64,000 bases of DNA from Gammaproteobacteria bacterium (GTDB taxonomy: Bacteria; Pseudomonadota; Gammaproteobacteria; Pseudomonadales; Azotimanducaceae), in contig JABJED010000264.1 of NCBI GenBank assembly GCA_018665025.1, positions 6,725 through 70,724 of the forward strand. Reading direction: 5' to 3'. How positions within the stretch are numbered: the first letter of the stretch is position 1; every line of letters starts with the position of its first letter. Of this stretch, positions 620 through 64,000 are shown piece by piece. Under the pieces are notes generated by a model. That model worked only from the letters and a program-made list of their open reading frames with translations. It was not told where the DNA came from and made no database searches. Position numbers and translations under genes: made by a program.

Positions 620-684
620 AGGTTCTATACAAGGCTTCTATACGAGGCTTCTATACGAGGCTTCTATACCAGGCCTCTAGACGA
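620..684. repeat. 13-nt tandem repeat, 5 copies, between ilvC and the modF-like gene
   Basis: The copies read AGG-TTCTATACAA / GGCTTCTATACGA / GGCTTCTATACGA / GGCTTCTATACCA / GGCCTCTAGACGA. The last copy overlaps the ilvC stop codon (677-679). Confidence 0.9.
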
Positions 685-2149: not shown

Positions 2150-2279
2150 GATACGGTCCACTCCTGGGATGAAGGTTGACGGGTTTTCAAGGTGCGTACT
2201 CTAGTTGATATCCCGTTTTTCGTAAAATGAAATATGCGAGATAACGCCTTGCGAAATCAGCAATCTGGCGTGTAGCCAG

Positions 2280-4320: not shown

Positions 4321-4366
4321 CTGCTTCCTTAGCTTTTAACAAGTCGCGGCCAGTAGTGCGTTCGGG

Positions 4367-5221: not shown

Positions 5222-5849
5222 GATTTTTATTCCTAGAGTTCCACTGAATTATGTCACAGATCTGACGGTATCTGTATGCCAGACTAACCCGACACCTTGT
5301 AACCTGATACGGGTAGCGACAGCCACCGCCGTAATGATGCCTATGACGACACCTATGATCGGGTCACCGGTGACAGCCATCGCTTTGGCAGCACTAGTAG
5401 CACAGGACACCGACAATCCCGCGCATCAAACCAGAGCAGGACATCTAATAACCTGGTCATAAATCGAACCGCAAAAAAGCTGACCACGGCGGCCCCTCGC
5501 TTTATCCGGATTATGTGCTAAGTAAAGTGAATCAGGCAAAAACCCAGCTTGGCGGAATTAGTATCGCTATTTCCATCGCCTGATATGCCGCCTAAATGAT
5601 ACATAATCCCCACTTATTGTTATTTTAATCATTTTAATGCCTTATATATTACTTATCCCGTATCTTTCTATTTATAGAGAATTATTACATCTACATTCCC
5701 GTTTATTGATATTTTTTATGGGTATTAAACCTAACATCCCTTTATTTTTAGAAAATGGCCGCTGCAGATGACATTGACCAATCTGATAATAATCGCCCCC
5801 CCATGATTCACCTCTAATACCTGCAGGTTCATTGACAAAACCCCAAATG

Positions 5850-5939: not shown

Positions 5940-7184
5940 ATGTCCGAAGCCCAGAAAATGGACACCCCCGAACAGGCAGCATTCCGCGCCCACTGTAAGG
6001 AATGGCTTGCCAACAATCACCCCGGTCGCCCAACCGTAAAATTACCCCTGGGCGCATTGGAACTCAGTGACCCGGACGCGCTGGCCTGGCTCCAAAAATG
6101 GCAGAAGTCTGCTTATGACGCCGGACTCATTGGTTGTGATTACCCCAAGGAAGTAGGTGGCGGCGGAATGGAGAATTGCCAGTCCATTGCCAATGCAGAA
6201 ATGCAGAGGGTACAGACCCCTTACCTGCCCAATATTATTGGTATGGGCATGGCCGCACCGACTGTCCTGTTCCACGCCCGCGACGAGGTAAAAGCAGAAC
6301 TACTGCCAAAGCTACTCTCCGGTGAAGAAATCTGGTGTCAGGGCTTCAGCGAGCCAGGTGCGGGTTCTGACCTTGCTAACCAGCAAACTTTCGCGGAACG
6401 CGATGGCGACAACTGGGTAATCAATGGCCACAAGGTATGGACGTCACTAGCGCATTTCGCGGAGTGGATGATCCTGCTATGCCGAACCAGCAAGGATGAT
6501 AAATACAACGGGCTGTCCTACTTTGTCGTACCGATTGAAAAAGCGCTCGGCAATGGGGTGACTGTACGCCCACTTATTAAGCTAACCGGTGAAACAGGCT
6601 TCAACGAAGTCATCTTTGACAACCTGGTCGTTGATGACAGATACAGACTCGACGAAGTTGGCGCAGGCTGGAAAGTGGCTATGACTACCCTCGCCCATGA
6701 ACGAGGCGCGGGTCCAATGACAACACCTGCCTCTGGCGGCATGGCAGTTGAAGAGCAGGAAGGCGCACAGACAAACAGCGCAATGGCATTAATACAACTC
6801 GCGAAACAACAATACCGCAATGGTAAGACAGCGGCGGACGACCCGCTCATTCGCGATGATATTATCAAGATGATGATTCGCCAGGAAGCTTTCAGGCAAA
6901 ATCAGCGTCGAGCCAGCGTCCCTTCGCTAACCGATCACCCCATGCGTATTCCATTGCAGTTCAAACTGGTCGCTACGGAAATGGCTCAGGATCTGCAGCA
7001 GATAGCTTATGAAGTAGAAGGTGCAGCAGCAACGTTATACGTCAACGACGACAATGCACCCGTCAGTGGTCAGTGGCCACTCGCTTACATGAATTCATTC
7101 GGTATTACGATTGCAGCCGGTGCCAACGAAGTTCAACGCAACATCCTGGGCGAACGTGTCCTGGGCATGCCCAAGTCGAAGTAG
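5940..7184 (+). CDS. Acyl-CoA dehydrogenase family protein
   Basis: IWCQGFSEPGAGSDLANQQT, NGHKVWTSLAHFAEW, C-terminal GANEVQRNILGERVLGMP. AGGAG Shine-Dalgarno. Confidence 0.9.
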   Translation: MSEAQKMDTPEQAAFRAHCKEWLANNHPGRPTVKLPLGALELSDPDALAWLQKWQKSAYDAGLIGCDYPKEVGGGGMENCQSIANAEMQRVQTPYLPNIIGMGMAAPTVLFHARDEVKAELLPKLLSGEEIWCQGFSEPGAGSDLANQQTFAERDGDNWVINGHKVWTSLAHFAEWMILLCRTSKDDKYNGLSYFVVPIEKALGNGVTVRPLIKLTGETGFNEVIFDNLVVDDRYRLDEVGAGWKVAMTTLAHERGAGPMTTPASGGMAVEEQEGAQTNSAMALIQLAKQQYRNGKTAADDPLIRDDIIKMMIRQEAFRQNQRRASVPSLTDHPMRIPLQFKLVATEMAQDLQQIAYEVEGAAATLYVNDDNAPVSGQWPLAYMNSFGITIAAGANEVQRNILGERVLGMPKSK

Positions 7185-9471: not shown

Positions 9472-12400
9472 TTAACCGACAATCCCATCTCGCAATACCG
9501 GAAATCTAACCTCAAACGTGGTTCCTTGCCCACCAATCAATCGAAACGAACCCTCGAGTTGCTCTACCAGGATCGACACGATCTCGAACCCCATGGATCC
9601 AGCTTCCGTATTGACCTCTATAGGCAAGCCGCGACCGCTGTCGGAAACGAAAATTACACACTCTTTTGCAAGCAGATATAACTTTACTTCTACGGTCCCT
9701 GAACCATGCTGCCTACCTTCAAAACCATGAATCAGCGCGTTACTGAACAACTCATTGATAATAAGCCCGCACGGGACTGCAAGGTCGATCGCAAGATCGA
9801 ACTCTCCCAACTCCTTCAGCAAATTAATTTCCAGCTCTTCAGAAACCAATTTTCGGTACAGCGTCGACAAGAGTACGTCGACATACTCGCCCATTGCGAC
9901 CCGTCTAACCTCTCTTGACTGATAAAGGCGTTCGTGAACTAACGCAATGGAACTGATCCTTCGCTCATTCTCACCCAGGATATTCAATATCACTGGATCA
10001 GAACATTTAGCGGATTGAATACTTAACAAACTCGTTAGCGTTCCAAGGTTGTCATAGACGCGATCATGGATTTCACGGAGGAGTACATCTTTCTCCGCCA
10101 GTACGGCACTGAAGTCAGTTCTTTGATCAGCATTTTTTACCAAGGTAATATCTAGCTGATTGTGCAGATTATTTAATTCTACTGTGAGCTGGCCGTGGCT
10201 AACCCTAAGTGCTTCCTGCTCTCGGCTTCGCTCTGTGACATCCCTCACGATACTGACGTATGCCACGCCGTCTTCAGGGGTTTCCAACGCCGGAGAGACG
10301 CTAATTTCGAGTATTTTTCCGGTCCCATCAGACATCAGGTAGGGAACCTCCTCCCGGAAGTTATTACCGCTATCAACGTACTCTTTTGCCTCATGACGCT
10401 GACCCGCTTGCTGGAACAGTATTTCAAAAAGCGGGTAGCCACCCACCTCGGACGGACGTTTACCAAGAACACCGGCTACCGCATTATTAGAGAACATCAC
10501 ATTCCCCTGTTGATTGGCATTTAGTACGCATTCAGCCGTGTCATCCAGGGATTCAACATAGCCTCTCAATCGTCTATTGAAACGGTCCTCTGCCTGCCGG
10601 TTGATTCTTTTCGAGCTGAATATCATCAGCTGATAGAGCGAAAACAGTGCTAAAGCAACATATACACAATACGCCCACCACGTAGCCCACAGAGGCGGAT
10701 TGATGGTTATGGGAATGCTAAGTCCATCCTCATTCCACACTCCATCACTGTTAGCCCCCTGGACTCGTAACAGATACGATCCAGGGTGGAGGTTTGTATA
10801 GGTGATGTTTCGATTGGTACCGTTGTCGATCCACCGGGCATCATAGCCCTCCAGTTTGTATTGATAACGATTTTTCTGGGGATAGGTGTAATCTAACGCT
10901 GCTACTTCGACTGACAGCCCGTTAACGCCATACTCAAGCTGTAACATTCCCCCGTTGGATAATTCAGCTTTCTTATTGTTTAGAAGAAGCTGTGTAACGC
11001 GAACCGGGGGAACATAATCGTTTCGTCGAACCTGCTCTGTTCGTACTACATTAACTCCCTCGTTTCCTCCAAATAAAAGTATCTCTGGAGTCAAGTTTAG
11101 GTCCGCATTAAAATTTAGCTCACCAACTTGAACACCGTGCTCATGGTCAAATTTCAACACCTTATCGGTACCGTCTAACCTCAATATTGAACCCGCGCTA
11201 GCGATCCAGACACTCTCATCAGCCGCGCTCAAGAGCCCATAAACCGCTGCTCCTTCAGTTAGATTTAATCCAACCTTGCGTTCTAACTCGTTGCTACTGA
11301 AATCGAAATAAAACAGACCTCCTTCCAGACCCCCAAACCAAATGCCATTCTGCGTCGCCAGAACGCTGATAATATCACCGCTAACAACCAATTCAGCTTC
11401 ACCTGTACCCAGTCGAGCCGTATCCCCAGTAACAGGATCCAAGCCGAAAACACCTTCGGCGGTACCTATCCACAAGGTTCCTAATGCATATTCGTCAATT
11501 TCATAACACCTAAGATCAGGAAACTGACCCGAAAGATTGCTCAGTTCAGGATATCTTTCAAAACCCTCTTCAATCGATACGAATCTATTTACACCTCCCC
11601 CGAAAGTAGACGTCCAAACATCACCAGTACTCGACAGATACAAATCAGTTATCGCATTTGAGCTCAAAGAAGCCTCCCTATCCTCCTCGTGAACAAAATG
11701 TGCAACCAATATCTGGTTAGAATAAAGGTAGACCCCATTCGAATAAGTTCCAATCCACAACTGATCGAAATTATCAAACAAAATATTCATCACATGGTCT
11801 GAAAACAATTCCCCAGCAGAATCCCGAAAATCTTGCATGGTTCCCGCTAGTGGATCCCAAATCACCACCCCCGAATGGGTCCCGACTGCGACCTTACCCA
11901 ACGAATCTACTGCTAACGAAGAAATGGAATCATCAACATCCAGACCTTCCAGTCCATAGATGGGGAATTGAGTAGTTTGGGTATTGAATGAACTTACCCC
12001 TTTAAATGTGCTCACCCAAATGACACCGCCAACATCTTGAAATAGGTCGTAAACCAAATCTCCTATTAGCCCCTCAGTCTTACGGGGATCATATGAGTAT
12101 GAATGTAGCTTCTGCTTATCTCTATTCCATTTATGCAGGCCCTTATCTGAACCAATCCAAATGTTTCCTAGATTGTCCTCGAGCAGGGCACGAACCCGCT
12201 TGTCTTCAAGGTCGCCACTTTCCGTAAAGCTCTGGAACACCCCCGTCTTTGAAAGAACCGAAAGACCATCATTGTATGTTGCGATCCACAGGTTACCTTC
12301 CATATCAAAAAGAAGCTCTCGGATATAAGCATCCGGGCCTACCCCATACTTCTCATCCATACCATCAGCCGCAACAAACCGGTTGCCTTCCTGCCGGAAC

Positions 12401-15107: not shown

Positions 15108-18100
15108 TTATCGCTCTTGGGAAGCGAATCTGGAAAACAGCCCCATCATCATTATGTGCGGACAGCGTGCCTTCAAGCTGCTCGGTCAAAATTGTTACAA
15201 TTTCCAGCCCCATCGACGTGTTCTTACTAAGATCAAAGTCTGGCGGGAGGCCAGAACCGTTGTCCGATATCCGCAGATCAAAGCTACAATCAGTGGTTAC
15301 AAAATCAATATCTATAATCCCTGTCTCCTCCTTATCATGAAATGCGTGCTTCAAAGAATTCGATACAAGCTCGTTGATTATGAGACCGCATGGAACGGCA
15401 GTCTCCAGGTCCAACACTACATTCTCTACGTTGACTTCCACGAAAACTGAGACTCCCGGAACCACGTATGATCGACTTAAGCTGTTGGTTAGTAACTCTA
15501 TGTAATCTTGAAAGTCTATGTTCAAAAGATCTTTTGATTGGTAGAGCGATTCATGAATCAGCGTCATCGACTTGATTCGCTGCTGACTTTCGTTAAGCAG
15601 GCTTGAATAAACCTCGTCGTCTACACCCTCCGCCTGGATGCTTAACAGGCTGGAGATGACCTGCATGTTGTTCTTCACACGATGATGGACTTCTTTGATC
15701 AATAGTTCTTTTTCAGCTAGTGAATTTTCGAGAGCCTGCTGTTGCAGTAGGCTTTTGCTAACTTCTTCCTCCAACTTACTCGTTCTTTCTATAACCTGCG
15801 TTTCAAGGTTTCTTGAATAGTGCTCCAGCTGAAGTTCAGTTTCCTTTCTCTGCGTGATATCTCGCGCAATCGCAATCAACGTCACGACACCCTGATACTC
15901 AGTTCGCGCAACGCTAATCTCATAAAATTTTTCCACCGCCAGTCGGCGAACCACTTCGGTGGAGAATCGCCCCGACTCCACAACACGAGATTCCACTTCG
16001 GCTCTCTCGTCAGCTGAATCAAAGAGCGTTTCTAGTAACTGACTACCAACGCCAGAGTCTAGCTCTGGGGTTTTAAACAACGCCAAAAACAGTGCATTTT
16101 GGTACTCGATGACGCCTTCTTCCGACGCAATTGCTATCGCGTCCGTGGCTTGCTCTAACGTCTGGATGTACTTTTCAAGGCGTGCTCGATGACTATCTTC
16201 AGCGATCCTCGCCATCCGCTGTGCGTTTAATCTATAGATGCCGGTTAAAACCAATACCGCCAAAATAAGGTAGCCCAAATAGGCCCACCAGCTCTGAAAC
16301 CAGGGAGGAAGTACATTTAGCTCAACCGCTAGCTGGTCACTTGACCATATTCCATCACCGTTGGTCGCCCTTACCCTAAAGGTGTATCTGCCGGGGTCCA
16401 GATTGGTATAAGCCACTGACCTATCGTTACCTGCTTTTACCCAATCAGGTTCGAATCCCTCTAACTGATATTCATACTGGTTTCGTAACGGACTAGAGTA
16501 GTCCATCGCTCCGTATTCAAACTCGATCACGTAGTCGTCGTGTTCAATTTCAATCTGGCTGGACTCAGTAAACGGTCTGTCGAGCGCGAAGTTTTTGTTC
16601 AGTTTTTTAAAACCGGTTAACTCCACCTTGGGTGAAAATGTACTCGACTTAATTTCTAAAGGATTGAAGGCATTAAAACCGGAATTCCCGCCGTACAAAA
16701 AGGTGCCGTCCATCATTCTTAGATAGGCGCCGTTGTTAAAATCGTCCGCTTGAAGCCCATGGCTAGTGTCGTAGATGTCCCACTGCCCCTCTTCCTTCAG
16801 AACTGACAACCCTTTCCCACCGCTCACCCACGCGCCGAGATTATCGTCTTCGAGCACGCCATAGGCTGCTACCGACGAGAGACCGTCTTCTTTAGTGATA
16901 CGAGTGACTTCTAACGTTGTCGGATCCACAAGGCTCAGGCCGGCGTCTCTGGCCCCTACCCACATCCCCCGAGCACCTTTAGAAACGGATACAAGGTTAT
17001 CGGAAGCTATCGTGCTCCGCTCCTCGGCATTGTGCCTGAGCGTTGTCACAACCTCATTCTCGGGATCAAGAATCATCAAGCCACCACCGTTGCTCGCGAT
17101 CCAAATATTACCCAGTACATCCTCTGCAACATCAGTTATTCGGAGGTCGGAAAATTCAGTCTTATTGTTGGGGTAGTGCTTGAACGAGGTACCGCCTTGG
17201 TATAAATCCAGACCGGTTCCATACAAACCAACCCAAATCCGCTTTTGGCTATCGACAAAGACTTTACTTACCTGGTCGCTAGCCAGGCTAGATGCCTTGC
17301 TGCTTGCTGTGTATTGTCGGGTTAACCCTGTGTTCACAGTGAAGGCAGTCAATCCGCCGTTCATCGTTCCAATCCAGACCGTAGAGTTCTCTTCTTGCTC
17401 TTCAACCGCCAAGGCCATCACTCGGTTGTCTCTGAGAGCAAAGTCATCTATTCGGCGGAACTCACCACTCGTTTTGTCATAGGCTGTTAGGCCAGTAAAA
17501 GTTCCAATCCATAAGGTTGTTTTATCTTCAGCAAAAGACGTGATGCTGTTGCCAGCCAGCTCCCCTCCTGTGTTGCGATCCATCTTGTAAAGCGCAAACC
17601 TGGGAGCGGCGGAATTCCATTTCGATATACCATTATAGGTACCCACCCAGATTACCCTGCCCGCATCTTCAAACAACGCGGACACCTTATTATCTGATAA
17701 AGAGCTTGGATCACTGCCTTTGTGCGTGAAATTTGAGGATGTGCCTTCTTCCTGATCTAAAACGAATAATCCATCATCCGTGCCTACCCAAATTCGGCCT
17801 TCGCTGTCGCTTAACAGGTTTCTCGTTCTAGTCGTCGCAGTGCCTTGGACTGACTCTAATGGTTGATATTGGAACTGTAGTGTCGTCGTGTCGCCGCGCC
17901 ATAAACCATTGTTGAAGGTTGCTACCCAAAGAAAACCTTTGGGACCTACCATCAGGCTCCTGATCATGTTGCCTGGTAGGTCAGTATCGTAGAACCCTCG
18001 CGTAAAACGGATAATTTCACCACTGTCAGGGTTCAGCCGCGACAGGCCACTAGGGTCGGTTCCTACCCAGATATTACCCTGGGTGTCTTGTTCAATAGCG

Positions 18101-30965: not shown

Positions 30966-31043
30966 CAGCGCTCTTATCGACAAACTTCAACTATCCGCAA
31001 ACTTCATGCATAGGCAAGCAGGATCAGCTATACTGCGCGCAGT

Positions 31044-31116
31044 TCCTTGGGGGTGGTATTACACCTGAGATCAAACCCCAGAACCTGATCCGGTTAGTCC
31101 CGGCGTAGGAAAAGGA
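31044..31116 (+). promoter_or_regulatory. TPP (thiamine pyrophosphate, THI-box) riboswitch aptamer
   Basis: TCCTTGGGGGTGGTATTACACCTGAGATCAAACCCCAGAACCTGATCCGGTTAGTCCCGGCGTAGGAAAAGGA. It has GGGGUG, CUGAGA, ACCC, GAACCUGAUC-CGG...CCGGCGUAGG and a closing P1 (TCCTT/AAGGA). Confidence 0.85.
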
Positions 31117-31147
31117 TGATCGCTAAATCTCCCATTACGTCCATACC

Positions 31148-31177: not shown

Positions 31178-33259
31178 ATGAGCTTTATTAGAGCCATTGT
31201 TAAAGCCATCCTTAGAAACACCCCTGGGCTGCTGCTTTTCTTTGCCGCCTATACCCATTCAAACGACATCCCGGAAATCGTCGTCACTGCAGACCTTCGG
31301 CAATCAACAACCATGGAGACCGCCAGTAGCCTGACAATCGTGTCCGAGCAGGTCATCGAAGCGAGGTCTGCGCAACATTTCGAAGACATCATAAATGTCA
31401 TCCCCAACGTTAATTTTGCTTCCGGCAGCAACCGGGCTCGATTCTTTCAGATTCGCGGCATCGGCGAGCGCAGCCAGTTTGTCAATCCTGTCAATCCTTC
31501 CGTTGGCGTTCTTATCGATGATGTCGATTTTAGCGGAGCTGGAACCATCGCCACGCTGATGGATGTTCAACAGGTCGAGGTTCTACGGGGCCCTCAGGGA
31601 ACACGATATGGCGCTAACGCACTGGCCGGGCTAATCAACTTTTCCACCAATGAACCGGACGAAGCTTTCTTCACCTCTGTCAAACTATCCGGCGGGGAGT
31701 TTGGGACACAAACCGCCGGCGTCGTCTTAAATGTGCCTATCAGCGAAAAATTCCTTTCCAGGTTTGTCTTTGAGTCACACGAAAGTGACGGTTACGTTGA
31801 AAATGATTTCCAGGACAGCAACACGACGAACGATCGCGAGGAGCTGACCAGCAGAGCAAAATTTTCCTGGCAGGTCAAAAAAAACTGGAGTCTGAACCTC
31901 TCACTAGCCTCTATAGATATCGACAATGGCTATGACGCTTTTTCACTCGACAACAACAGACACACATTGTCGGACGAGCCTGGTTTTGATCGCCAAAACT
32001 CTGCTTACGTGTCCCTGAAAAGCAGCTGGCAGTTGGATGGGATGAACATCGACGTGCTGTGGAACCAATCGGATTCCGACCTTGACTACGGTTACGACGA
32101 GGACTGGTCTTTCACCGGTATCCATCCGTGGGGATACACATCAACTGATCATTACTTCCGTGAGCGCGACACCACCAGCGCCGAAATAAGGCTGTTATCC
32201 AACGAATCCAGTCGAGTTTTTGCCGACACGACGGACTGGGTCCTTGGTTTGTATTACCTTAGATCAAGTGAAGCGCTTCAACGCCAATACACCTTCCTGC
32301 CGTCAGATTTCCTGAGCGACTACGAGTTTGACACCTTCGCGATTTTCTCCCAACTCGATGTCGCCCTCTCGGATCGAATGACACTAAGTGCTGGCTTGCG
32401 ACTGGAAGAGCGTGACACTGAATATGGCGACTCAGATGGCGCAACATTTTCACCTGACGATTCATTCTGGGGCGGTAAGGTTGCCCTCGAATACCTGGCC
32501 GGGGAAAACACACTGGCTTATGGTTCTGTTTCACGGGGCTACAAGGCGGGAGGGTTCAACATCGACGGTTCGCTGGATGCTGACCTTCGATCCTTCGATG
32601 AAGAATACCTGATCGAATATGAGCTTGGTGTCAAAACGCTGCTGGCAAATGAACGCGTTGCGCTTCAACTAGCGATCTTCTACGACGATCGACACGACCA
32701 GCAGGTAAAAAGTTCAGTCGTTCGCTCTCGACCGGACGGGAGTACCGAGTTCATCGACTTTCTGGGTAACGCAGCAGAAGGTACGAACCGCGGCGTAGAG
32801 ATGGACATCAACTGGTTTGTTAATGACAACTTCAACATCAACGCCAATGCAGGTTGGTTAGATGCAGAATTTGACGAATTCATCAATGAGTTCGGTGAAG
32901 ACCTGTCTGGCAGGGACCAGGCCCATGCACCCTCCTACACCTTCAGCCTGAACTTTAACTATCAACAGGGCCCTTGGTTTGCCAGTGTTTCCGCCGACGG
33001 TAAAGATAACTTTTTCTTTTCAGATCGGCACTCAATCAAGAGCAAGCGCTACACCTTGTACAACGCTTCCCTCGGTTTTGAGTCGGGGCAATGGAAAGTC
33101 ACGTTATGGGGAAGGAATCTGGCCGACAAAGACTATTATGTGCGCGGGTTTGGCAGCTTTGGCAACGACCCGCGCAATTTCTATGTTACTGAACCTTATT
33201 TTCAGTATGGCGAACCCAGGGTGACTGGTGTGACCCTGCAATTAACAATGGGTGGGTGA
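31178..33259 (+). CDS. TonB-dependent outer-membrane receptor (riboswitch context suggests thiamine or a thiamine precursor)
   Basis: Signal peptide, plug (IVVTADLRQSTTMETASSLTIV, FFQIRGIG), VEVLRGPQGTRYGANALAGLINF, long beta-barrel. Confidence 0.9.
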   Translation: MSFIRAIVKAILRNTPGLLLFFAAYTHSNDIPEIVVTADLRQSTTMETASSLTIVSEQVIEARSAQHFEDIINVIPNVNFASGSNRARFFQIRGIGERSQFVNPVNPSVGVLIDDVDFSGAGTIATLMDVQQVEVLRGPQGTRYGANALAGLINFSTNEPDEAFFTSVKLSGGEFGTQTAGVVLNVPISEKFLSRFVFESHESDGYVENDFQDSNTTNDREELTSRAKFSWQVKKNWSLNLSLASIDIDNGYDAFSLDNNRHTLSDEPGFDRQNSAYVSLKSSWQLDGMNIDVLWNQSDSDLDYGYDEDWSFTGIHPWGYTSTDHYFRERDTTSAEIRLLSNESSRVFADTTDWVLGLYYLRSSEALQRQYTFLPSDFLSDYEFDTFAIFSQLDVALSDRMTLSAGLRLEERDTEYGDSDGATFSPDDSFWGGKVALEYLAGENTLAYGSVSRGYKAGGFNIDGSLDADLRSFDEEYLIEYELGVKTLLANERVALQLAIFYDDRHDQQVKSSVVRSRPDGSTEFIDFLGNAAEGTNRGVEMDINWFVNDNFNINANAGWLDAEFDEFINEFGEDLSGRDQAHAPSYTFSLNFNYQQGPWFASVSADGKDNFFFSDRHSIKSKRYTLYNASLGFESGQWKVTLWGRNLADKDYYVRGFGSFGNDPRNFYVTEPYFQYGEPRVTGVTLQLTMGG

Positions 33260-54709: not shown

Positions 54710-55222
54710 ATGTCGGGTCATAATGGCGCATTCAGGTCTGAGGCTATACTGACCATGACAACATTATTAAACCGAGCACTAATCCCCACTATGCTGGATC
54801 AGCAAATAGACCTGAGTACTCCGATCATTGGCGGTGACACAATCTGGGCCAATATGTACGCGGCATATGACGCCCTGCAGCAAGCAATGAAATCCATGCT
54901 GCATGAGTTGTCAGCAATCTACGACATGGGCACCCTTAGAAATGATTATCTCGGAGCAACCATGGACACCAATGCCGTCAACCAGGCAATGCGGGAACTG
55001 GGTTCAGCGGTTCACCCGATAACGCCCGTGCATCCTGTGACGGGCAAACGTTTTCTCTACGACCACATCAACCAGCCCGAATTCCAGGTTCGATATCGCT
55101 GGCGAGCCGGCTCCATGGGGCTGTGGGACAATAGGGTGACGCAACACTATGCGATAGCCGATTACCTGCCTCATTACCGCAGGATGCACCGGGTGACGGT
55201 CGTAGACGACGCAAGAGTTTGA
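54710..55222 (+). pseudogene. TauD-family dioxygenase remnant: N-terminal HxD region missing, plus an internal in-frame deletion
   Basis: Retains IIGGDTIWANMYAAYDAL, HPVTGKRFLY and PEFQVRYRWRAGSMGLWDNRVTQHYAIADYLPHYRRMHRVTV. Compared with the intact paralog at 4367..5221, it lacks the first ~95 aa and ~26 aa after ...LY. Confidence 0.7.
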
Positions 55223-55224
55223 CC

Positions 55225-56412
55225 ATGCTGCCTGACGTCCCGGATTTTGATATTTACGCGATTGATCATCTGCCAGAGAAACTCATCGTTGCAGAGCAGA
55301 GGCTCATCATTACCTGGGATGACGGTAAAATCAGCCATTACCCCTTTGTCTGGTTGAGAGAATACAGCCCGGATGCCGGTACTTTTAACGACATCACTCG
55401 GGAACAGAATATCGCCGTGACAGATCTGCCGGATAAACTGAACATCTCGAGCACGGAAATTGGCGCTGACGGCTCAGTCATCGTCAACTGGCAACCCGAA
55501 AACCTGGACAGCCGGTACCACCCGGGATGGCTTCGAGCCCACTGCCCCTCGAACCCAAAACCAAATTTCGAGTTGCCAAAACGAACTCTCTGGACTGCCA
55601 CCAGAACCGCCGCCAGTCAGACCTTCCCACCAACATTTAGTGGCGCACAGATCGACACCGATAAAGAATTTAGCGAGTGGCTGGGCGCTTTACATTCCAG
55701 CGGCGTTGCAGTGATCACAGATCTGCCAATTGAACCCGAAGCACTCGAAAAAGTGGTCGATCGAATCGGTCCCATCAGGACTTCTAACTTCGGTCGGATT
55801 TTCGATGTCGAACTAAAGGCCGAAACAAATTCGAATGCCTATACCTCCCAGCCTCTGAGAGCACACACCGACCTTGCGACCCGCGAATATCAGCCCGGCC
55901 TGCAGTTCTTTTTTTGTATGGAAAATTCAGTCTCCGGCGGAGAAACAATTCTTACAGACGGACTTGCTGTCGCAGAAAAGATTCGCACCGATCACCCTGA
56001 AGAATACGCTTTTCTGACGGAGCAACCCATACCCTTCGTCAATACCGACAGAGATTCTGAATACCGCTACGAAGTCCCTATTTTAGAAACCGATCACCAC
56101 GGCGACATCACTACAGTCCGGTTTACGTATTGGCTTCGCGCGCCGATGACCGGCGATTTGGCGACTCTGGATAACTTATATTCGGCGCTTCGACTATTTC
56201 ATCACTATGCCGACCATGAGGACTACCAGCTTAGATTCCCGCTGAAGCCCGGTGATCTGATCGGGGTTGATAACCGCAGGGTTCTGCATGGGAGAACCGG
56301 CTTTGCACCTGACGCCGGTCATCGTTGGTTGCGTGGTTGCTATATGGAAAGAGAAGAACTCGAGTCACGACTGCGTGTGCTGGATCGGCAAAGGAGAATC
56401 CGATCTGCCTGA
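55225..56412 (+). CDS. Gamma-butyrobetaine hydroxylase-like (BBOX/TmpA-type) Fe(II)/2OG dioxygenase with an N-terminal DUF971 domain
   Basis: N-terminal LIITWDDGKISHYPFVWLREYSPD. Catalytic domain LRAHTDLATREYQPGLQFFFCMENSVSGGETILTDG ... VDNRRVLHGRTGF. ATG 55225 lies 2 nt after the remnant's stop. Confidence 0.8.
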   Translation: MLPDVPDFDIYAIDHLPEKLIVAEQRLIITWDDGKISHYPFVWLREYSPDAGTFNDITREQNIAVTDLPDKLNISSTEIGADGSVIVNWQPENLDSRYHPGWLRAHCPSNPKPNFELPKRTLWTATRTAASQTFPPTFSGAQIDTDKEFSEWLGALHSSGVAVITDLPIEPEALEKVVDRIGPIRTSNFGRIFDVELKAETNSNAYTSQPLRAHTDLATREYQPGLQFFFCMENSVSGGETILTDGLAVAEKIRTDHPEEYAFLTEQPIPFVNTDRDSEYRYEVPILETDHHGDITTVRFTYWLRAPMTGDLATLDNLYSALRLFHHYADHEDYQLRFPLKPGDLIGVDNRRVLHGRTGFAPDAGHRWLRGCYMEREELESRLRVLDRQRRIRSA

Positions 56413-56742: not shown

Positions 56743-56909
56743 GTTGTTCTCTCTTTTACATATTTGGTTTATGGGAAGAGATTGTAAGGGTGTCTTGTAA
56801 ACGCCGGTTAACGCCAATGTGCACTAATGTAACGGAACGTGACCTATGGGCTTACCGTATGATGTATTTATAAGCTATGGTCCCTGAACAGCTGGCAAAG
56901 GAGTGTTAC

Positions 56910-57284
56910 ATGGCATACCTACCTATCGTAATAGCATTTGGCGTCGGGATTGCGCTTGGCATCGTCATTCACATTTCCATAATGAAACGCAGAAAACCCG
57001 TTTATCTGGTTGTGAGTGCCGAAGTTAGAAACGAAGAAGCACTCGAGCCATACCGGAAACAGGCCGTGCCGCTGGCAGAAGCCGCTGGATTAGAAATACT
57101 CGGCAGCGGTGAAATAGAGTTGATGGAAGGCGACTGGGATCATTTTCCGGCCCTGACTTTGGAAAAATTCGAGTCCAAAGCGGCCTTACATAAGTTCTGG
57201 TATTCCCCCGAATATCAGCAAGCAAAGAAACTTCGTGAAGGGCATCTCGACGTTCAGTTTATCGTCGCCGTCGAAGGCATATAA
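56910..57284 (+). CDS. DUF1330-domain protein with an N-terminal TM helix
   Basis: AAGGAG Shine-Dalgarno before ATG 56910. MAYLPIVIAFGVGIALGIVIHI, then YLVVSAEVRNEEALEPYRKQAVPLAEAAG...FESKAALHKFWYSPEYQQAKKLR. Confidence 0.75.
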   Translation: MAYLPIVIAFGVGIALGIVIHISIMKRRKPVYLVVSAEVRNEEALEPYRKQAVPLAEAAGLEILGSGEIELMEGDWDHFPALTLEKFESKAALHKFWYSPEYQQAKKLREGHLDVQFIVAVEGI

Positions 57285-57601
57285 CCGCTTTACTACATCT
57301 CGGAGATCAGTTGGCCGAGCACCTGGTCGACACGCTACGTTTGCACCCGGTCCGCAAGACTAAACATCGATGCCTGACAATCGCAGACACACATACTCCA
57401 ACTATTGGCGATATTACTGTTACTAACTTGAAGACAGGCGCTAATAACCCTTCTTTGCCTAGAACCTACGACCACCTCTATCCGCTGAGCTAAATCCCTC
57501 GTTCCCGTACACGCAACTGCGGGGTATCATCAGTGGGGTAATTAAACCTGGAACCGTTTCCAAGCCTTTACACCTTACCTGTAACATCTACATAGGTTGT
57601 T

Positions 57602-58486
57602 ATGAAAAATAGGGATGCCATGAAGCCGACGCCAACAGAATATATTCGCCAGACTCGGGAAAGCTACGAAAAACTGGGATTTGAACCCTATCAATGGTTC
57701 CACGCTGAAGATGAACCTAAACTTGCGCCGCTGGCAAAACCATTATCAGAATCAAAGCTGGGGCTAATCTCTACCGCGGGCACGTATGTTCACGGACAGG
57801 TTGCCTACTACTACAAAGATGACACGAGCATCCGCGCGATCCCAAGTGATACCGCCGTCAAAGACATTCGATTCTCGCATATCATGGAAAACTACCTTGA
57901 AGAGGCCCGCCAGGACCCTTGCACAGTCTTTCCCCTGGAGGCTCTCAACCAGCTCGAATCAGAAGGTATTATTGGCGAACTGGCCGGGAACTACTTCTCC
58001 TGCATGGGCGGAATCTATTCAAAGAATCGGGTGATCAACGAGCTGCTACCCAACCTCGAGCAAGCCGTCTCTAAAGAACAGTTAGATCTTCTTCTGTTAA
58101 TTCCTTTGTGACCTGTTTGCCACCAGACCGTGTGTCTGATCGCTCGCCATTTCGAATCACTCGGATTGCCTACGCTGATCCTGGGAAGTGCACTTGATAT
58201 CATGAGCGCGGGGAAACCGCCTCGAGCCAGGTTTGTGAATTATCCGCTGGGATTTGAATCAGGCCGATTCAGGGATAAGACTGATCAGCTTGCCGTTGTT
58301 CGCGAGGCACTGAAAGGGTTCGCAGACATTACCTCTCCGGGCATCGTACCGCTGGACTTCGAGTGGCAGGCAGGCTGGGAGATGCTGAACGAAAGGGAAA
58401 AAGGGAAGCTGGACCATCGAAGCCCACGCACCACAGAACCGCAATACCAGACTGAAGATGATCGACGCGCAGCCAGCGGGCAGTAA
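57602..58486 (+). CDS. GrdB/PrdB-family (glycine/sarcosine/betaine/D-proline reductase selenoprotein B-like) protein with in-frame TGA 58109-58111: candidate selenoprotein
   Basis: Track ORFs 57602..58111 and 58130..58486 share a frame (offset 528 nt) and are split only by TGA plus six sense codons. The joined product reads ...LDLLLLIPL-U-PVCHQTVCLIARHFESLGLPTLILGS...PPRARFVNYPLGFESGRF, family-like on both sides of the TGA. Confidence 0.65.
58124..58138 (+). promoter_or_regulatory. Candidate bacterial SECIS hairpin downstream of the in-frame TGA
   Basis: CAGAC-CGTGT-GTCTG starts 13 nt after the TGA. The loop contains GU about 20 nt from the UGA. The stem can be extended with mismatches (58119-58143). 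Confidence 0.4.
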
Positions 58487-58785
58487 GGGTTAATCAGGCA
58501 CGTTCTACAACGCCCAGGAGCACTACCGGAAAATCTTCAGCGTGAGGATATCGTCGTGGTTAGGGTCTGACGAAAGAACAGCATAAACAGGGCAGGCTCA
58601 ACAAAATACTACTTGAGCAAGCCATTGATCCTATCACCCTGATCGCCAATGAAAGTGCAGACCTGAACCTTGTTACGCAACCAAACCCGCAGGTCATACT
58701 AATGCCCCGCGCGTCAGCATCGTGTGCAGCTTCGTCAAAAAATCCGGTGGATATATCAAAATCGCGTCTGATCCTGACGCTAACC

Positions 58786-59871
58786 TCAGGAGGTTAGCGC
58801 CTGATTTTCCCGCCGCATCAGGTAAGGCGTCTTACCCAGGTTGTCTCGATAACCACGGGCAGCATTCTCGCCAGGGTCCATTACGATATATCGACACAGG
58901 TCCTGCCCATGTGGTGACAACGTATCGAAGACCTCTCTCGGCATACTGATGTGGTGAGGTTCACGATACCAGGGCGCCCAATACTCAACATTCGGCAGCG
59001 CCCGAACATGATTTGACAAGTTTGGTGTCCCACCATGCCACGCCCGGATATCCCGAATGAGTACACTGCCTGCCGAAGCAGGACAGACTGTCGACAATTT
59101 CATCCATTCCGGTTCATCCATCAAGCGCGGGATCGGATCATGATTGTGCTGGGTACCTGGAATCTGGCGCGTGGGACCATTAATTGCTGTGAAATCTATC
59201 ATCAGGAAGTTGCAAACCACGCTGGGCACCGGAAGATCCCTATAGGTAAGAAGGCCACGGTGATCATGAAAGGACCCCGCCACATAATCACCATGAGTTC
59301 GACGATCTCCCATGTCCGAATGCAGCCGCTGATACTCGACAGCTCCAGGAAGACAAAAGTCTCCGGCAGCACCACGGCACATATAGGTAGGCGCACCGAA
59401 TATTGACGTGATGATCGGTGTTACCAACGGCAGATCAACCAGCATAGCCCATTCCAGATGGTGCATTAGCTGGCCCGTTACGCTCGCGCTGCCAAAGGAG
59501 TATCGGTGTGAGCCTCGGTTTCCCTGCCGGTTCCCATCCATTGACATAATTTCACGTATTTCGCGATCGCAACCCTGCTGAATGTAAGTCAGCTGTTCCG
59601 GTGTCAGAACATCTCGCACCACCACAAAACCGTCTCTGTGGAATATCTCTGTGGCCCGCTCGACTTCATCGGGTGAGACAACCTCTAGACCCCGGATGCC
59701 ATTATTTTCAGACAAGTTCTCCCTTAATTCGACAACCTCTTCACTCATTGGGTCGACTTCCACCCAACCCAGATCGTCAAAGGGCACTTTCAGTGCATTA
59801 TTATCCGGTTCTAGTTTTTGTTCCGGCACAGTCATTTCACCTATTTTTTGAACACGTATTGAAACAGCCAA
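58786..59871 (-). CDS. Phytanoyl-CoA dioxygenase (PhyH) family Fe(II)/2OG oxygenase
   Basis: ATEIFHRDGFVVVRDVLTPEQL, QRLHSDMG (HxD), IRAWHGGTPN. The start is either TTG 59871 (track) or ATG 59835 (MTVPEQ...). Confidence 0.8.
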   Translation of the reverse strand: MAVSIRVQKIGEMTVPEQKLEPDNNALKVPFDDLGWVEVDPMSEEVVELRENLSENNGIRGLEVVSPDEVERATEIFHRDGFVVVRDVLTPEQLTYIQQGCDREIREIMSMDGNRQGNRGSHRYSFGSASVTGQLMHHLEWAMLVDLPLVTPIITSIFGAPTYMCRGAAGDFCLPGAVEYQRLHSDMGDRRTHGDYVAGSFHDHRGLLTYRDLPVPSVVCNFLMIDFTAINGPTRQIPGTQHNHDPIPRLMDEPEWMKLSTVCPASAGSVLIRDIRAWHGGTPNLSNHVRALPNVEYWAPWYREPHHISMPREVFDTLSPHGQDLCRYIVMDPGENAARGYRDNLGKTPYLMRRENQALTS

Positions 59872-59953
59872 AAATTCTTGAGGTCAATATAGCGATGGAA
59901 CTCACCAAAGGGTTCAGTGGTTTGCTTCAGTTCTTCCAGGGTCGGGAAATTTT

Positions 59954-60109
59954 TCAATACCTGATGCCTGATGCCAGCTCCCCACAGCCATCAAACATCT
60001 CCTGTAGATGGACCCCAAGAAACCGCAGATCAGCCTCGCGCTCCGGGTAGCTAAAAACGAGATTGTAGCCCGGCGCACGCTCTTTGTAGTAGTGAGACAT
60101 TTCATCCAT
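59954..60109 (-). pseudogene. Remnant of a class I SAM-dependent methyltransferase (N-terminal ~50 aa only)
   Basis: MDEMSHYYKERAPGYNLVFSYPEREADLRFLGVHLQEMFDGCGELASGIRY* resembles the N-terminus up to the start of motif I (E-L-A-S-G), then stops. A tandem CCTGATG duplication sits at 59960-59973. Confidence 0.5.
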
Positions 60110-60223
60110 TGGGCGCAAGTTTAGCGGATAACGACCCAGAGTCAGGTTAGTTTGTCTTATCAAAGTAGATGCATTTCGCTATGCTGCACGACTTCTTTGA
60201 CCATTATTGGGCCAACCCTATAT

Positions 60224-61747
60224 ATGTACCCAGGAAATTTTGACCCCGATCGTCCAGCTTATATCATGGCAGACGCTGGCCTGACCGTCAGCTACGGCGA
60301 ACTGGAAGCTGTTTCTAACCAGATCGCTCATCTGTTCAGGGATTTGGGCCTGAAACGCGGCGATAGTATCGCGCTCTGTCTGGAAAACCACCGCACCTTC
60401 TTCCAGATCTGTTGGGCAGCTCATCGTTCCGGCATCTACTTTACGGCGATCAGCTACCGCCTGCAGGCAGACGAAGTCGAATATATTGTCAACGACTGCG
60501 GTGCGAAAATTTTGATCACGTCCGCCCTGCTCGAAGACACATTCAATGGTTTTAAAGACAAGCTGGTTAACAAGCCTGCGTGTTACATGCTCGATGGCAC
60601 TGCGCAGGGAGCCAGTTCATTCGAAGACGCAATCAAGCCCTACCCGACAGAGCCAATAGCTGATCAGTCCTATGGCCAGAGTCTGCTTTATTCCTCTGGA
60701 ACCACCGGCATGCCGAAAGGCATAAAAAAACCCATGGTTGATGTTCCCTGGGGGGAGCCAGACCCGGTTTTTGAAGCCCGACGAATTCGATACGAATTCG
60801 ATGAAGACGCTATCTATTTGTCCCCGGCGCCGCTTTACCATGCCGCGCCTTTAGGGTTCACGATGAATGTTCTGCGATACGGTGGCACCTGTATTGTGAT
60901 GGAACATTACGAGTCAGAACGCGCGCTTGAGCTTATTGAGCAGTTCAAGGTCACTCACAGCCAATGGGTACCAACTATGTTTGTTCGTATGCTGAAGTTA
61001 CCCGAGGGCGATCGAAGCAGGCACGACCTGAGCAGCCACCGGGTGGCCATTCACGCAGCGGCGCCTTGCCCTATTAGTGTGAAGGAACAAATGATTGATT
61101 GGTGGGGACCCATTGTTCACGAGTACTATGCGGGAACCGAAGGTAACGGTTCAACAACCATTACCTCCGAAGAATGGCTGAGTCACAAAGGCTCCGTCGG
61201 AAAGCCCGCCGGTGAGTGCAAAGTGCACATCATGGATGACGAAGGTGTCGTATTGCCAACAGGCGAAGCCGGCGGCGTGTATTTCGAAGGTGGTGGGCAG
61301 TTCGAATATCTCCACGACGAAGAAAAAACCAATGCCAGCCGAACCTCGAATGGCTGGTCGACCCTGGGAGATATCGGACACCTTGATAAAGAAGGTTACC
61401 TGTACCTTACTGACCGAAAGTCTTTCATGATCATCTCGGGCGGCGTCAACATCTACCCGCAGGAATCAGAAAACGCGCTAATTACCCACCCTGCAGTGAT
61501 AGACGTTGCAGTTTTCGGTGTCCCTAATGAAGAATTCGGGGAAGAAGTGAAAGCCGTGGTGCAACTAGCTGATTTTGGATCCGCTGGACCAGCACTGGCA
61601 GCCGAGTTGATGAATTACGCCAGGCAGAAGATATCGCACATCAAATGTCCCCGATCCATCGATTTTATAGCGGAGCTGCCACGGCATCCAACAGGTAAAC
61701 TCTACAAACGACTCCTCAAAGACAAGTACTGGGAAACAACAAGCTAA
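60224..61747 (+). CDS. Acyl-CoA synthetase / AMP-dependent ligase
   Basis: LLYSSGTTGMPKG (AMP motif), YYAGTEGNG, GDIGHLDKEGYLYLTDRK, PRHPTGKLYKR. ATG 60224; the track ORF starts 24 codons earlier. Confidence 0.9.
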   Translation: MYPGNFDPDRPAYIMADAGLTVSYGELEAVSNQIAHLFRDLGLKRGDSIALCLENHRTFFQICWAAHRSGIYFTAISYRLQADEVEYIVNDCGAKILITSALLEDTFNGFKDKLVNKPACYMLDGTAQGASSFEDAIKPYPTEPIADQSYGQSLLYSSGTTGMPKGIKKPMVDVPWGEPDPVFEARRIRYEFDEDAIYLSPAPLYHAAPLGFTMNVLRYGGTCIVMEHYESERALELIEQFKVTHSQWVPTMFVRMLKLPEGDRSRHDLSSHRVAIHAAAPCPISVKEQMIDWWGPIVHEYYAGTEGNGSTTITSEEWLSHKGSVGKPAGECKVHIMDDEGVVLPTGEAGGVYFEGGGQFEYLHDEEKTNASRTSNGWSTLGDIGHLDKEGYLYLTDRKSFMIISGGVNIYPQESENALITHPAVIDVAVFGVPNEEFGEEVKAVVQLADFGSAGPALAAELMNYARQKISHIKCPRSIDFIAELPRHPTGKLYKRLLKDKYWETTS

Positions 61748-62529
61748 TGATAAATAAACTGTTCGATCTCTCTGGCCGCGTTGCACTGATCACCGGTGGT
61801 AATGGTGGCATTGGCCTTGGCATGGCAGAGGGGCTGGCCTCTCAGGGTTGCGAAGTCAGTATCTGGGGCACCAACCCTGATAAAAATGCCAAAGCGCTCG
61901 AAACGCTGCAGCAGTATGGCCCTAAAGTTTCAGCCCTGAAATGCGATGTCGCAGACCAGCAGGCAGTAGAAGCCTGCTTCAAGCAAACACTTGCAACTCA
62001 CGGCCGGGTAGACGGATGTTTTGCAAATGCCGGTATCGGTGGTCGGCCAACGCAATTCGACCAGATGGAAAAGGAAGAATGGACACGCATCATGGAGGTT
62101 AACCTTGATGGTGTCTTCCATACTTTTCGTTGCGCGGCGGAACATATGCGCCTGCGCTCTGAAGCAGGCGACCCCTTTGGCCGCCTTATCTCAACCGCCA
62201 GCTTAGCGGCGATATCCGGGCAGGCACGCGGCGAACATTATGCGGCAACCAAAGGTGGCCTGATCTCGATGAACAAGGCGCTCGCTGTCGAATACGCCAG
62301 GCATAATGTCACTGCCCACACTATCCTTCCCGGGTGGATCGAAACTGAAATGACGCAGCAGACCTTCAACTCAGAAAAATTTGTGGGCAACGTTATGCCA
62401 CGCGTTCCGATGCGCCGCTGGGGACAACCCGAAGATTTCGCAGGCATTGCCGTTTACATTATGAGCAGCGCCAGCAGCTACCACACGTCAGAAACCTTTT
62501 TGATTGATGGTGGATACGCAAATTTCTAG
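61747..62529 (+). CDS. SDR-family oxidoreductase (FabG-like)
   Basis: ALITGGNGGIGLG, NAGI, YAATKGGL. The start overlaps the upstream stop (TAATG). Confidence 0.9.
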   Translation: MINKLFDLSGRVALITGGNGGIGLGMAEGLASQGCEVSIWGTNPDKNAKALETLQQYGPKVSALKCDVADQQAVEACFKQTLATHGRVDGCFANAGIGGRPTQFDQMEKEEWTRIMEVNLDGVFHTFRCAAEHMRLRSEAGDPFGRLISTASLAAISGQARGEHYAATKGGLISMNKALAVEYARHNVTAHTILPGWIETEMTQQTFNSEKFVGNVMPRVPMRRWGQPEDFAGIAVYIMSSASSYHTSETFLIDGGYANF

Positions 62530-62568
62530 AGCCCCTTAGTTACAGAGGCCCTAAAAGGTTAGTCGTTT

Positions 62569-63768
62569 ATGACCACTGCATTTGATGGCATCAGAATTCT
62601 TGATTTTACGCAGGTACTTGCTGGCCCTTTCGCCGTCATGCAACTGGCGCTACTCGGCGCGGATGTTATCAAGGTAGAACAACCTATTACCGGCGATCAG
62701 ACTCGCGGCCTGATGAACGCAGGTGAAGACCTAAAAATGTCTCCGTCGTTCATGGGCATGAATCTTAACAAGCGAAGCCTTACCCTGAATTTGAAAGCTG
62801 AAAATGCGGCGGGAATTATCAAGAAACTTTTGCCCACGGTTGACGTGATCGTTGAGAACTTTAAAGCGGGCACCATGCAACGCCGCGGTCTTGACTATGA
62901 GACTCTCAGGCAACTGAAACCCGACCTCATTTACTGTTCCATCACCGGCTACGGCCAGACTGGACCCAAAGCCGGAGAAGCCGCTTATGACGGCGCGATT
63001 CAGGCATCCAGCGGCATGATGTCCCAGAACGGACACCCGGAAACAGGCCCAACCCGAACAGGCTATATGCCAGTAGATATGTCCACTGGACTTAATTCAG
63101 CATTTGCCATTTCAGCGGCCCTTTACCGCAAAGCTACTACGGGCGAAGGCCAGTACATCGATGTCGCTATGCTAGATACCGCGATCATTATGCAAGCATC
63201 CCAGTTCAGCAACTACCTTAACCAGGGCACCCTCATTGGGCTTCGTGGAAATGCTTCCCCCACGGGCCAGCCCACTGCCAACGTGTTCCCCACCATGGAC
63301 GGACACATCCAGATAACCGCGCTCCGACAACCACAGGTTGAAAAACTGTTTACCGAACTCGGTCTCGAGCAAATGCTGGAAGATAAAAAATTCGCTACCC
63401 CTGATTCACGTATCAATCATCCAGAGGCAATTTTTGACGCCATGTCCCTGGCGCTTAACCGGCAGACCACCGCGGCGTGGATGAAACAGCTTGCACCAGC
63501 AGGCATTCCCGTCGCCGAAGTGCGTGAACTTCCAGAGGTTGCCAGCGACCCGGATATCACACATAGAAACGCCCTGGTCACCCTGCCTTCGCCGTTGGAC
63601 CCAGATGCAACGGTGACTGTGGCAAAGGCAGGCTATGTCACCAACGTGGACGGGCCCGAGGTGCGCAGCGGACCACCAATGCTTGGCGCCGATACTGACG
63701 ACATTCTGGCCGAGCTGGGTTACGAACCCAAAGAAATAGAACGCTTAAGAAATACAGGTATTATTTGA
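62569..63768 (+). CDS. Family III CoA-transferase (CaiB/BaiF type)
   Basis: GIRILDFTQVLAGPFAVMQLALLGADVIKVE, VIVENFKAGTMQRRGL, ITGYGQTGP. Confidence 0.9.
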   Translation: MTTAFDGIRILDFTQVLAGPFAVMQLALLGADVIKVEQPITGDQTRGLMNAGEDLKMSPSFMGMNLNKRSLTLNLKAENAAGIIKKLLPTVDVIVENFKAGTMQRRGLDYETLRQLKPDLIYCSITGYGQTGPKAGEAAYDGAIQASSGMMSQNGHPETGPTRTGYMPVDMSTGLNSAFAISAALYRKATTGEGQYIDVAMLDTAIIMQASQFSNYLNQGTLIGLRGNASPTGQPTANVFPTMDGHIQITALRQPQVEKLFTELGLEQMLEDKKFATPDSRINHPEAIFDAMSLALNRQTTAAWMKQLAPAGIPVAEVRELPEVASDPDITHRNALVTLPSPLDPDATVTVAKAGYVTNVDGPEVRSGPPMLGADTDDILAELGYEPKEIERLRNTGII

Positions 63769-63784
63769 TGACTGGCTCACGCTA

Positions 63785-64000
63785 ATGGCAGACAAACCCC
63801 TCAATTTTCACCAAAGCACAGACCAAATCGCGACATCAGGGCAACCCGATCGCCGCCAGTTTCACTGGATCGCTGATGAAGGTTACGAGGTCGTGATTAA
63901 CCTTGCGATGCATGATTCGAACAACGCCATCCCCGAGGAAGGTAGCCTTGTGGCATCCCTTGGCATGCAGTACATCAACATTCCGGTTCCGTTTGACGAA
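63785..64000 (+). CDS. DUF442 / TIGR01244-type phosphatase-fold protein, N-terminal 72 aa (runs off the right edge)
   Basis: MADKPLNFHQSTDQIATSGQPDRRQFHWIADEGYEVVINLAMHD...YINIPVPFDE. Not in the track because there is no stop in the window. Confidence 0.5.
   Translation, partial: MADKPLNFHQSTDQIATSGQPDRRQFHWIADEGYEVVINLAMHDSNNAIPEEGSLVASLGMQYINIPVPFDE

Follow-up and report, generated by a model that had tools for sequence, protein, structure and literature searches.

Does the TGA triplet that separates two neighbouring open reading frames (ORFs) in a gammaproteobacterial contig end one gene before another begins, or does it encode selenocysteine (Sec) in the middle of a single gene? The question arises at positions 57602-58486 of a 64,000-nucleotide stretch of contig JABJED010000264.1 from a Gammaproteobacteria bacterium (the window, to which all positions refer unless another locus is named). 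A preliminary description had proposed the locus as a stand-alone GrdB-like selenoprotein gene. Our comparative analysis makes it very probable that the two ORFs are one gene encoding a 288-residue selenoprotein of the GrdB/PrdB superfamily, that the protein belongs to the marine clade catalogued as "proline reductase PrdB, UxxC", that its UGA is decoded as Sec by means of a Sec insertion sequence (SECIS), and that it is not a D-proline reductase.

The ORFs at 57602-58111 and 58130-58486 form, as read from the sequence, a single gene whose sole interruption is the TGA at 58109-58111; the frame stays open across P-V-C-H-Q-T and the GTG at 58130 until the TAA at 58484-58486. The preliminary description had recognized the shared frame, split by the TGA and six sense codons, and all of the peptide strings that it quoted are present. 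As it had also remarked, the GTG lacks a Shine-Dalgarno sequence, and no purine-rich stretch is found upstream of it. Its frame and TGA stand, while the start that it took, at 57602, is replaced by ATG 57620 as the likely true start, because a putative Shine-Dalgarno sequence (AGGGA, 57611-57615) precedes this codon and because the 163 amino acids (aa) assigned by gene callers to close homologues match that Met. The read-through peptide across the Sec site is LLLIPL-U-PVCHQTVCLIAR. The P, C, H and Q residues of the U-P-V-C-H-Q motif are invariant in 39 sequences, and the part that follows the UGA carries a conserved C-terminal tail, R-S-P-R-x-x-x-P-Q-Y-Q-T-E-D-D-R. The features of the locus are as follows.

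57620-58486, + strand: complete coding sequence across the UGA for the PrdB-like selenoprotein (288 aa; residue 164 is Sec), with another possible start, ATG 57602, further upstream
57611-57615, + strand: Shine-Dalgarno-like AGGGA, 4 nt before ATG 57620, proposed from reading the sequence
58109-58111, + strand: in-frame UGA, the probable Sec codon (Sec164), from conservation of the TGA column and Cys in homologues
58109-58120, + strand: U-P-V-C redox motif, Sec164 and the presumed resolving Cys167 (codon 58118-58120)
58122-58140, + strand: putative SECIS hairpin, core 58124-58128/58134-58138, loop CGUGU 58129-58133
58112-58486, + strand: part of the protein after the UGA, 124 aa, in frame and conserved in at least 46 genome loci

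Conservation of the UGA codon and the downstream hairpin

The read-through protein used as a query returned 515 relatives. Those at 66-94% identity are almost all fragments of about 163 aa, and therefore end at the same point as the window ORF, and relatives near 50% identity span the whole protein (288-296 aa). Cys occupies the TGA column, within the motif L-[U/C]-P-V-C-H-Q, in 13 of the 14 full-length homologues aligned, and the C-terminal half is conserved, so the pairing of Sec with Cys at this column that the preliminary description looked for is borne out. Protein P0115 (347 aa), a full-length homologue, carries Thr at the active-site column (V-T-P-V-C-H-Q), which suggests a lineage that is without the redox pair by loss.

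At the DNA level, 49 related loci from marine gamma- and alphaproteobacterial metagenome-assembled genomes were compared; 47 have TGA at this column followed by about 120-140 conserved in-frame codons; of the other two, one carries TGT and one has a frameshift. A scan of metagenomes added 79 loci that could be used, of which 74 carry TGA and 5 a Cys codon (TGT or TGC), bringing the combined count to 121 TGA versus 6 Cys-codon loci. The ratio of nonsynonymous to synonymous substitution rates (dN/dS, ω), compared only where dS was not saturated, is 0.05-0.25 after the TGA versus 0.05-0.22 before it, with similar dN in both halves; the read-through postulated earlier is thus matched by purifying selection as strong beyond the TGA as ahead of it. 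The first and second positions of the six codons from the TGA to the GTG are invariant and all changes are synonymous, and the ribosome therefore translates straight through the UGA in this frame. Of 40 same-frame ORF pairs in the window that are split by TGA, only the pair at 57602-58486 combines a redox motif with a plausible size. Reassignment of the genetic code was ruled out, TGA being the ordinary stop of 9 of the 40 long ORFs of the window.

The hairpin is positioned directly downstream of the UGA. In its core stem, CAGAC (58124-58128) and GTCTG (58134-58138) are paired and enclose the loop CGTGT (58129-58133), in which G58130 and U58131 lie 21-22 nt past the U of the UGA. The preliminary description had pointed to this SECIS-like hairpin at 58124-58138 and to a loop GU about 20 nt after the UGA; both observations hold, and the hairpin is further found to co-occur with the TGA, to be lost in the Cys forms and to covary. 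The stem starts 10-12 nt after the UGA and closes on a small loop containing a G. In most relatives the stem has seven pairs, and in the window it consists of A58122-T58140, a C58123/A58139 mismatch and the 5-bp core. The hairpin is kept in all TGA-type loci and is missing from all six Cys-codon loci (L042, L107, L112, L113, L121 and L125), which have diverged at this position and retain 4 of the 7 pairs.

Hairpin statistics were computed over 98 non-redundant TGA-type sequences. The codons that overlie the hairpin are frozen (CAG in 96, ACC in 97, GTG in 96, [U/A]GU in 96 and CUG in 96), with the synonymous positions +17, +20, +23, +26 and +29 invariant in 96-98 sequences, and all four bases occur at the flanking third positions +5, +8, +35 and +38. 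The residue eight codons past Sec (the third codon after Cys167) is Cys or Ser, encoded by UGU or AGU in 96 sequences, with GGU in the other 2; the variable first base of this codon lies in the loop and its other two bases are paired. Two stem pairs change in concert: U-A is replaced by C-G in 19 sequences, G at +30 occurring almost solely with C at +14 (Fisher p = 1e-7), and G-C is replaced by A-U in two (L027 and L073). Pairing is found in 96.1% of cells versus 17-36% when the 3' partners are slid, the observed covariation was reached by none of 500 shuffles, and RNAalifold predicts the identical core. An Rfam scan of the window gave no match to a SECIS family, a thiamine pyrophosphate (TPP) riboswitch being the only hit above threshold. 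From this pattern of conservation, the hairpin at 58122-58140 is judged to be a SECIS.

The minimal SECIS of E. coli fdhF lies about 11 nt after its UGA and has an essential loop G23/U24. The window element resembles it in being a hairpin directly downstream of the UGA, within the coding region, with a small loop containing G, and differs from it in being very short (5-7 bp), perfectly regular, without a bulged U and of family-specific sequence. We propose that UGA 58109-58111 is decoded as Sec through a minimal SECIS inside the coding sequence, with a stem of 5-7 bp and the 5-nt loop CGUG(U/A), which starts 13 nt after the U of the UGA, lies over the codons H-Q-T-V-C-L-I, and presumably recruits SelB with Sec-tRNA(Sec) as in E. 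coli fdhF. The account of bacterial SECIS elements in PMC1088965 names a small apical loop containing G as their feature. The locus combines this stem-loop with the two other marks of a bacterial selenoprotein gene, a Sec/Cys pair among homologues and conserved translation downstream, and comparative evidence supports the decoding of this UGA as Sec.

In one lineage, a second and divergent paralogue is encoded some 3 kb away from the main gene (L070 9609-10493, − strand, identical in L026 and L069-L072). It is about 33% identical in its N-terminal part, contains the same module, V-U-P-V-C-H-Q-T-V-S-L, and forms a 7-bp hairpin without mismatch, ACCAGAC-CGTGA-GTCTGGT. Next to it, in divergent orientation, lies a gene for a small glutaredoxin-like CxxC protein (L070 10630-10872).

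Relationship to proline reductase and to a known marine family

The window protein has close relatives in published selenoprotein catalogues. In its listing of Sargasso Sea selenoproteins, PMC1088965 (Zhang, Fomenko and Gladyshev 2005) ranks "Proline reductase (PrdB), UXXC" as the third most abundant family, with 42 genes, and PMC2398784 (Zhang and Gladyshev 2008) tabulates 235 Sec versus 110 Cys sequences in Global Ocean Sampling (GOS) data. At least 86 sequences in the "#Proline reductase" section of GOS Dataset S1 carry UPVCHQ. One of them, JCVI_READ_1092215059895, aligns with the window protein over 276 residues at 70% identity, with no gaps and with U at the same position (LLLIPLUPVCHQTVCLIARHFE across the Sec site, LGFESGRF further on). 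With the U-PVCHQ motif and this close similarity, the window protein falls within the Sargasso/GOS PrdB family and differs from it in nothing substantive. Surface-ocean samples are rich in this family, which, like the loci compared here (121 TGA, 6 Cys), is mostly in the Sec form (235/110 in GOS). On these comparisons the window gene is judged a real selenoprotein gene of a known, catalogued family and not a new one. The stand-alone GrdB-like selenoprotein of the preliminary description is accordingly retained as real and as lying outside any Stickland operon, and its novelty is not, the family being already in the Sargasso and GOS catalogues. In the text searched, these papers, which assign the PrdB label by homology, and later reviews that keep it discuss neither the missing PrdA nor function.

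Given this label, the window protein was compared with the curated reductase families. The best model is PrdB (TIGR04483, E = 1.7e-30), which aligns residues 38-255 (218 residues, the Sec column included) with profile positions 17-234 of 238; the score of 106.2 bits falls far short of the 300-bit equivalog cutoff. Scores are likewise below cutoff for Pfam GRDB (PF07355; 17.6 bits versus a gathering score of 22) and TIGR01918 (22.7 versus 65.45 bits), and the GrdF, GrdH and GrdB models give weak matches below theirs. Membership is therefore placed at the superfamily level only: by these profiles the protein is a distant member and an equivalog of neither PrdB nor GrdB. The GrdB/PrdB-family assignment made earlier survives at that level, with every curated cutoff missed.

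The Sec residue of Clostridioides difficile PrdB, U151, is catalytic; the pyruvoyl group of PrdA binds D-proline, and U151 attacks its α-carbon (PMC11229817). PrdB has the motif UxxC and GrdB the motif U-x-x-C-x-x-C (PMC13188914), and in Clostridia the prd and the grd genes are organized in operons (PMC13188914, PMC11229817). The window protein shares with PrdB of C. difficile and Clostridium sticklandii about 218 homologous residues and a Sec in U-x-x-C, the U-P-V-C at 58109-58120, at a comparable position (U151 there, approximately profile position 149 here). Unlike the clostridial protein, it has about 30 extra N-terminal and about 40 extra C-terminal conserved residues, its host is an aerobic proteobacterium and not a Stickland-fermenting clostridium, and no PrdA, PrdC, PrdH or proline racemase is encoded near its gene. 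To GrdB, GrdF and GrdH it shows distant homology around the Sec (E 1e-4 to 6e-7), which again stands first in U-x-x-C. It differs from them in length (about 290 versus about 430 aa), in its motif, which is U-P-V-C-H-Q-T-V-[C/S] and hence U-x-x-C-x-x-x-x-[C/S] in place of U-x-x-C-x-x-C, and in the absence of GrdA, GrdE and GrdC nearby.

The protein might nonetheless be a bona fide B subunit of D-proline reductase (or of glycine, betaine or sarcosine reductase) whose PrdA or GrdE and electron-transfer partners are encoded elsewhere in the genome. PrdB is indeed the best family match, the U-x-x-C motif is identical to that of PrdB, and the label is in use at JGI as well as in the selenoproteome papers. 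We consider this reading improbable: the 106 bits obtained against the required 300, the missed TIGR01918 and GRDB cutoffs and the conserved extensions at both ends of the 238-position PrdB model all speak against it, as do the aerobic marine proteobacterial hosts with O2-dependent dioxygenase genes nearby. A gene for PrdB would also be expected to lie, as in Clostridia, in a prd cluster that encodes PrdA, the pyruvoyl subunit, and no prdA, prdC, prdD, prdE or prdH and no grdA, grdC or grdE was found within about 6-10 kb in the 128 related loci or near the window gene, in agreement with the lack of Prd/Grd partners in the window noted previously. Our literature search for PrdB homologues lacking PrdA in Proteobacteria returned nothing. 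The window protein is most likely not a D-proline reductase, because its gene forms a monocistronic unit, no partner is conserved beside it and its score lies well under the equivalog threshold for PrdB. More likely, it acts in aerobic marine Proteobacteria as a reductase that either stands alone or relies on a differently partnered system.

The AlphaFold2 model of a 52%-identical Cys homologue (predicted local distance difference test 90.9, predicted TM-score 0.92) places the Cys/Sec column between the strand 155-159 and the N-terminus of the helix 163-178, a predicted strand-to-helix position typical of redox CxxC centres. By sequence, the single protein gave only a marginal chance match in the PDB (E = 0.42) and the profile gave none; a Foldseek search of the model against the PDB returned no match at E ≤ 0.001, with a best TM-score of 0.31, and hence no function could be transferred from a known fold.

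By homology, Sec164 and Cys167 are predicted to form a selenol/thiol redox pair at the strand-to-helix junction. In this scheme the target of Sec164 would be an electrophilic carbon of the substrate or a bond of disulfide type; resolution of the adduct by Cys167 would leave a selenenyl-sulfide, to be reduced again by a thiol system of the cell. That the marine PrdB-like family as a whole is a self-contained U-x-x-C selenol/thiol reductase that functions without a pyruvoyl partner, and not a proline or glycine reductase subunit, is a proposal to which we give roughly even chances.

Other readings of the interrupted frame

Three readings would do without Sec, and all are rejected because the TGA column is conserved, ω is low and the six codons after the TGA vary only synonymously. 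The first is that translation stops at the UGA and restarts at the GTG of 58130, yielding two polypeptides that assemble, with the hairpin serving for coupling or regulation. The GTG (58130-58132) is conserved in 96 of 98 sequences and databases do list two ORFs. Against such a split, the GTG is located inside the hairpin loop with no Shine-Dalgarno sequence, the P-V-C-H-Q-T codons ahead of it behave as codons translated in frame, and the TGA column corresponds to the conserved Cys of a C-x-x-C in unsplit homologues. A further argument, which also supports Sec decoding itself, comes from the relative L025, in which the Sec-decoding genes selABC directly adjoin the orthologue: the latter (9995-10870) is head-to-head with selA (TIGR00474, 575 bits; cutoff 268), selB (TIGR00475, 407 bits; cutoff 242) and the tRNA-Sec gene (6359-6452). 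Taken together, these observations leave the stop-and-restart reading very improbable.

The second is a pseudogene: a GrdB/PrdB-like gene of the Cys type would have been cut short by a nonsense mutation, leaving the downstream ORF to decay. It would account for databases that carry only the 163-aa N-terminal piece, and two relatives do look damaged: the L049 orthologue is frameshifted throughout, and that of L020 has two extra stops in the 110 codons past the TGA, the first after 27 codons, damage that could reflect real pseudogenes or long-read assembly errors. The preliminary description had held that widespread truncation at the same site in relatives would indicate a pseudogene; the TGA site is indeed shared, but the 121 loci that share it encode proteins down to about 50% identical, the 124 downstream codons are under the same purifying selection as those upstream and a dedicated RNA hairpin accompanies the TGA, and the probability of this reading is negligible. 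Equally negligible is a sequencing or assembly error at a true TGC, TGT or TGG codon, each a single base away from TGA, since independent assemblies from many projects and technologies, and the GOS Sanger reads too, have TGA at the same place.

Several points weigh against Sec decoding by a SECIS here. The C/A mismatch in the 7-bp stem leaves the window with only the 5-bp core, and most stem pairs are invariant, so the covariation is carried by two of them. The 64-kb window contains no selA, selB, selD or tRNA-Sec gene: ARAGORN detected no tRNA in it, and tblastn with SelA and SelB of L025 and an E. coli SelD sequence gave no match, so the capacity of the host to insert Sec is suggested by its relatives only. 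The argument for Sec insertion in the clade is itself comparative, and the catalytic mechanism is drawn purely from homology, the fold having no solved structure and the gene context pointing to neither a partner nor a substrate. With these points taken into account, a single Sec-containing protein translated through the UGA is still the reading that we hold to with high confidence.

Two further observations concern the Sec machinery of relatives. Genes flanking the Sec genes of L025 (4079-9821) encode a KamA-family radical-SAM aminomutase (4079-5284) and, at 660-4049, a large adenylation protein resembling nonribosomal peptide synthetases. Near another orthologue, L012 has an 89-nt tRNA of undetermined type (17215-17303, − strand) that ARAGORN reports with a two-base anticodon, "tc", and which may be a mis-parsed tRNA-Sec.

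Gene neighbourhood and implications for the family

No neighbour of the gene is conserved across distant lineages, and no thioredoxin or thioredoxin reductase gene was found near it. Synteny, involving PhyH, acyl-CoA synthetase, SDR and CaiB-type CoA-transferase genes, is confined to a close gammaproteobacterial clade. The nearest relative, L001, is 97.5% identical at the DNA level over 56826-64000, and its synteny with the window ends abruptly at about 56826; the BBOX-like dioxygenase is therefore no conserved neighbour, and the upstream catabolic genes of trimethylammonium/osmolyte type lie in a strain-variable region. A functional link to the DUF1330 and BBOX genes was rejected on the same break. 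Of the context described previously, its aerobic character holds, O2-dependent dioxygenase genes adjoining the window gene and fitting an aerobic host, whereas the DUF1330, PhyH and BBOX-like genes are not conserved partners. Genes for acyl-CoA synthetase, CoA-transferase, enoyl-CoA hydratase, acyl-CoA dehydrogenase and MetY recur loosely beside the gene in several lineages; their acyl-CoA, osmolyte and sulfur-amino-acid theme is a hint and not evidence. A promoter and terminator scan around the gene yielded nothing informative.

Elsewhere in the window, a 170-aa ORF (54710-55222, + strand) aligns with the TauD/TfdA dioxygenase profile in the C-terminal half only (positions 123-267 of 267), and the stop of this ORF overlaps the start, at 55219, of a GBBH-like gene; it looks like a truncated gene remnant, because the N-terminal half is absent upstream in any frame. 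The GBBH-like gene itself (55219-56412, + strand) encodes an Fe/2-oxoglutarate dioxygenase that scores 312 bits against the gamma-butyrobetaine dioxygenase model (cutoff 414.75) and 279 bits against TmpA (cutoff 400), so that its substrate is uncertain. The TPP riboswitch (RF00059, 65.1 bits; 31039-31128, + strand) is positioned just upstream of a 693-aa ORF at 31178-33259.

For annotation, the consequence is that the locus should be entered as one 288-aa selenoprotein. Automated pipelines still end it at the UGA: almost every close entry in the databases is a 163-aa fragment, and some bear the name "D-proline reductase PrdB". We argue that the PrdB label is a misnomer, in view of the missed cutoffs, the lack of a nearby PrdA and of a conserved operon, and the aerobic hosts. 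As a natural instance of a minimal SECIS the marine family is unusually clear, with a 15-nt core that freezes five synonymous sites, limits one residue to Cys or Ser (UGU/AGU) and vanishes when Sec is replaced by Cys. Should the family prove to be a self-contained reductase, the enzymology of one of the most abundant selenoproteins in the ocean would be new, in a fold without a solved structure.

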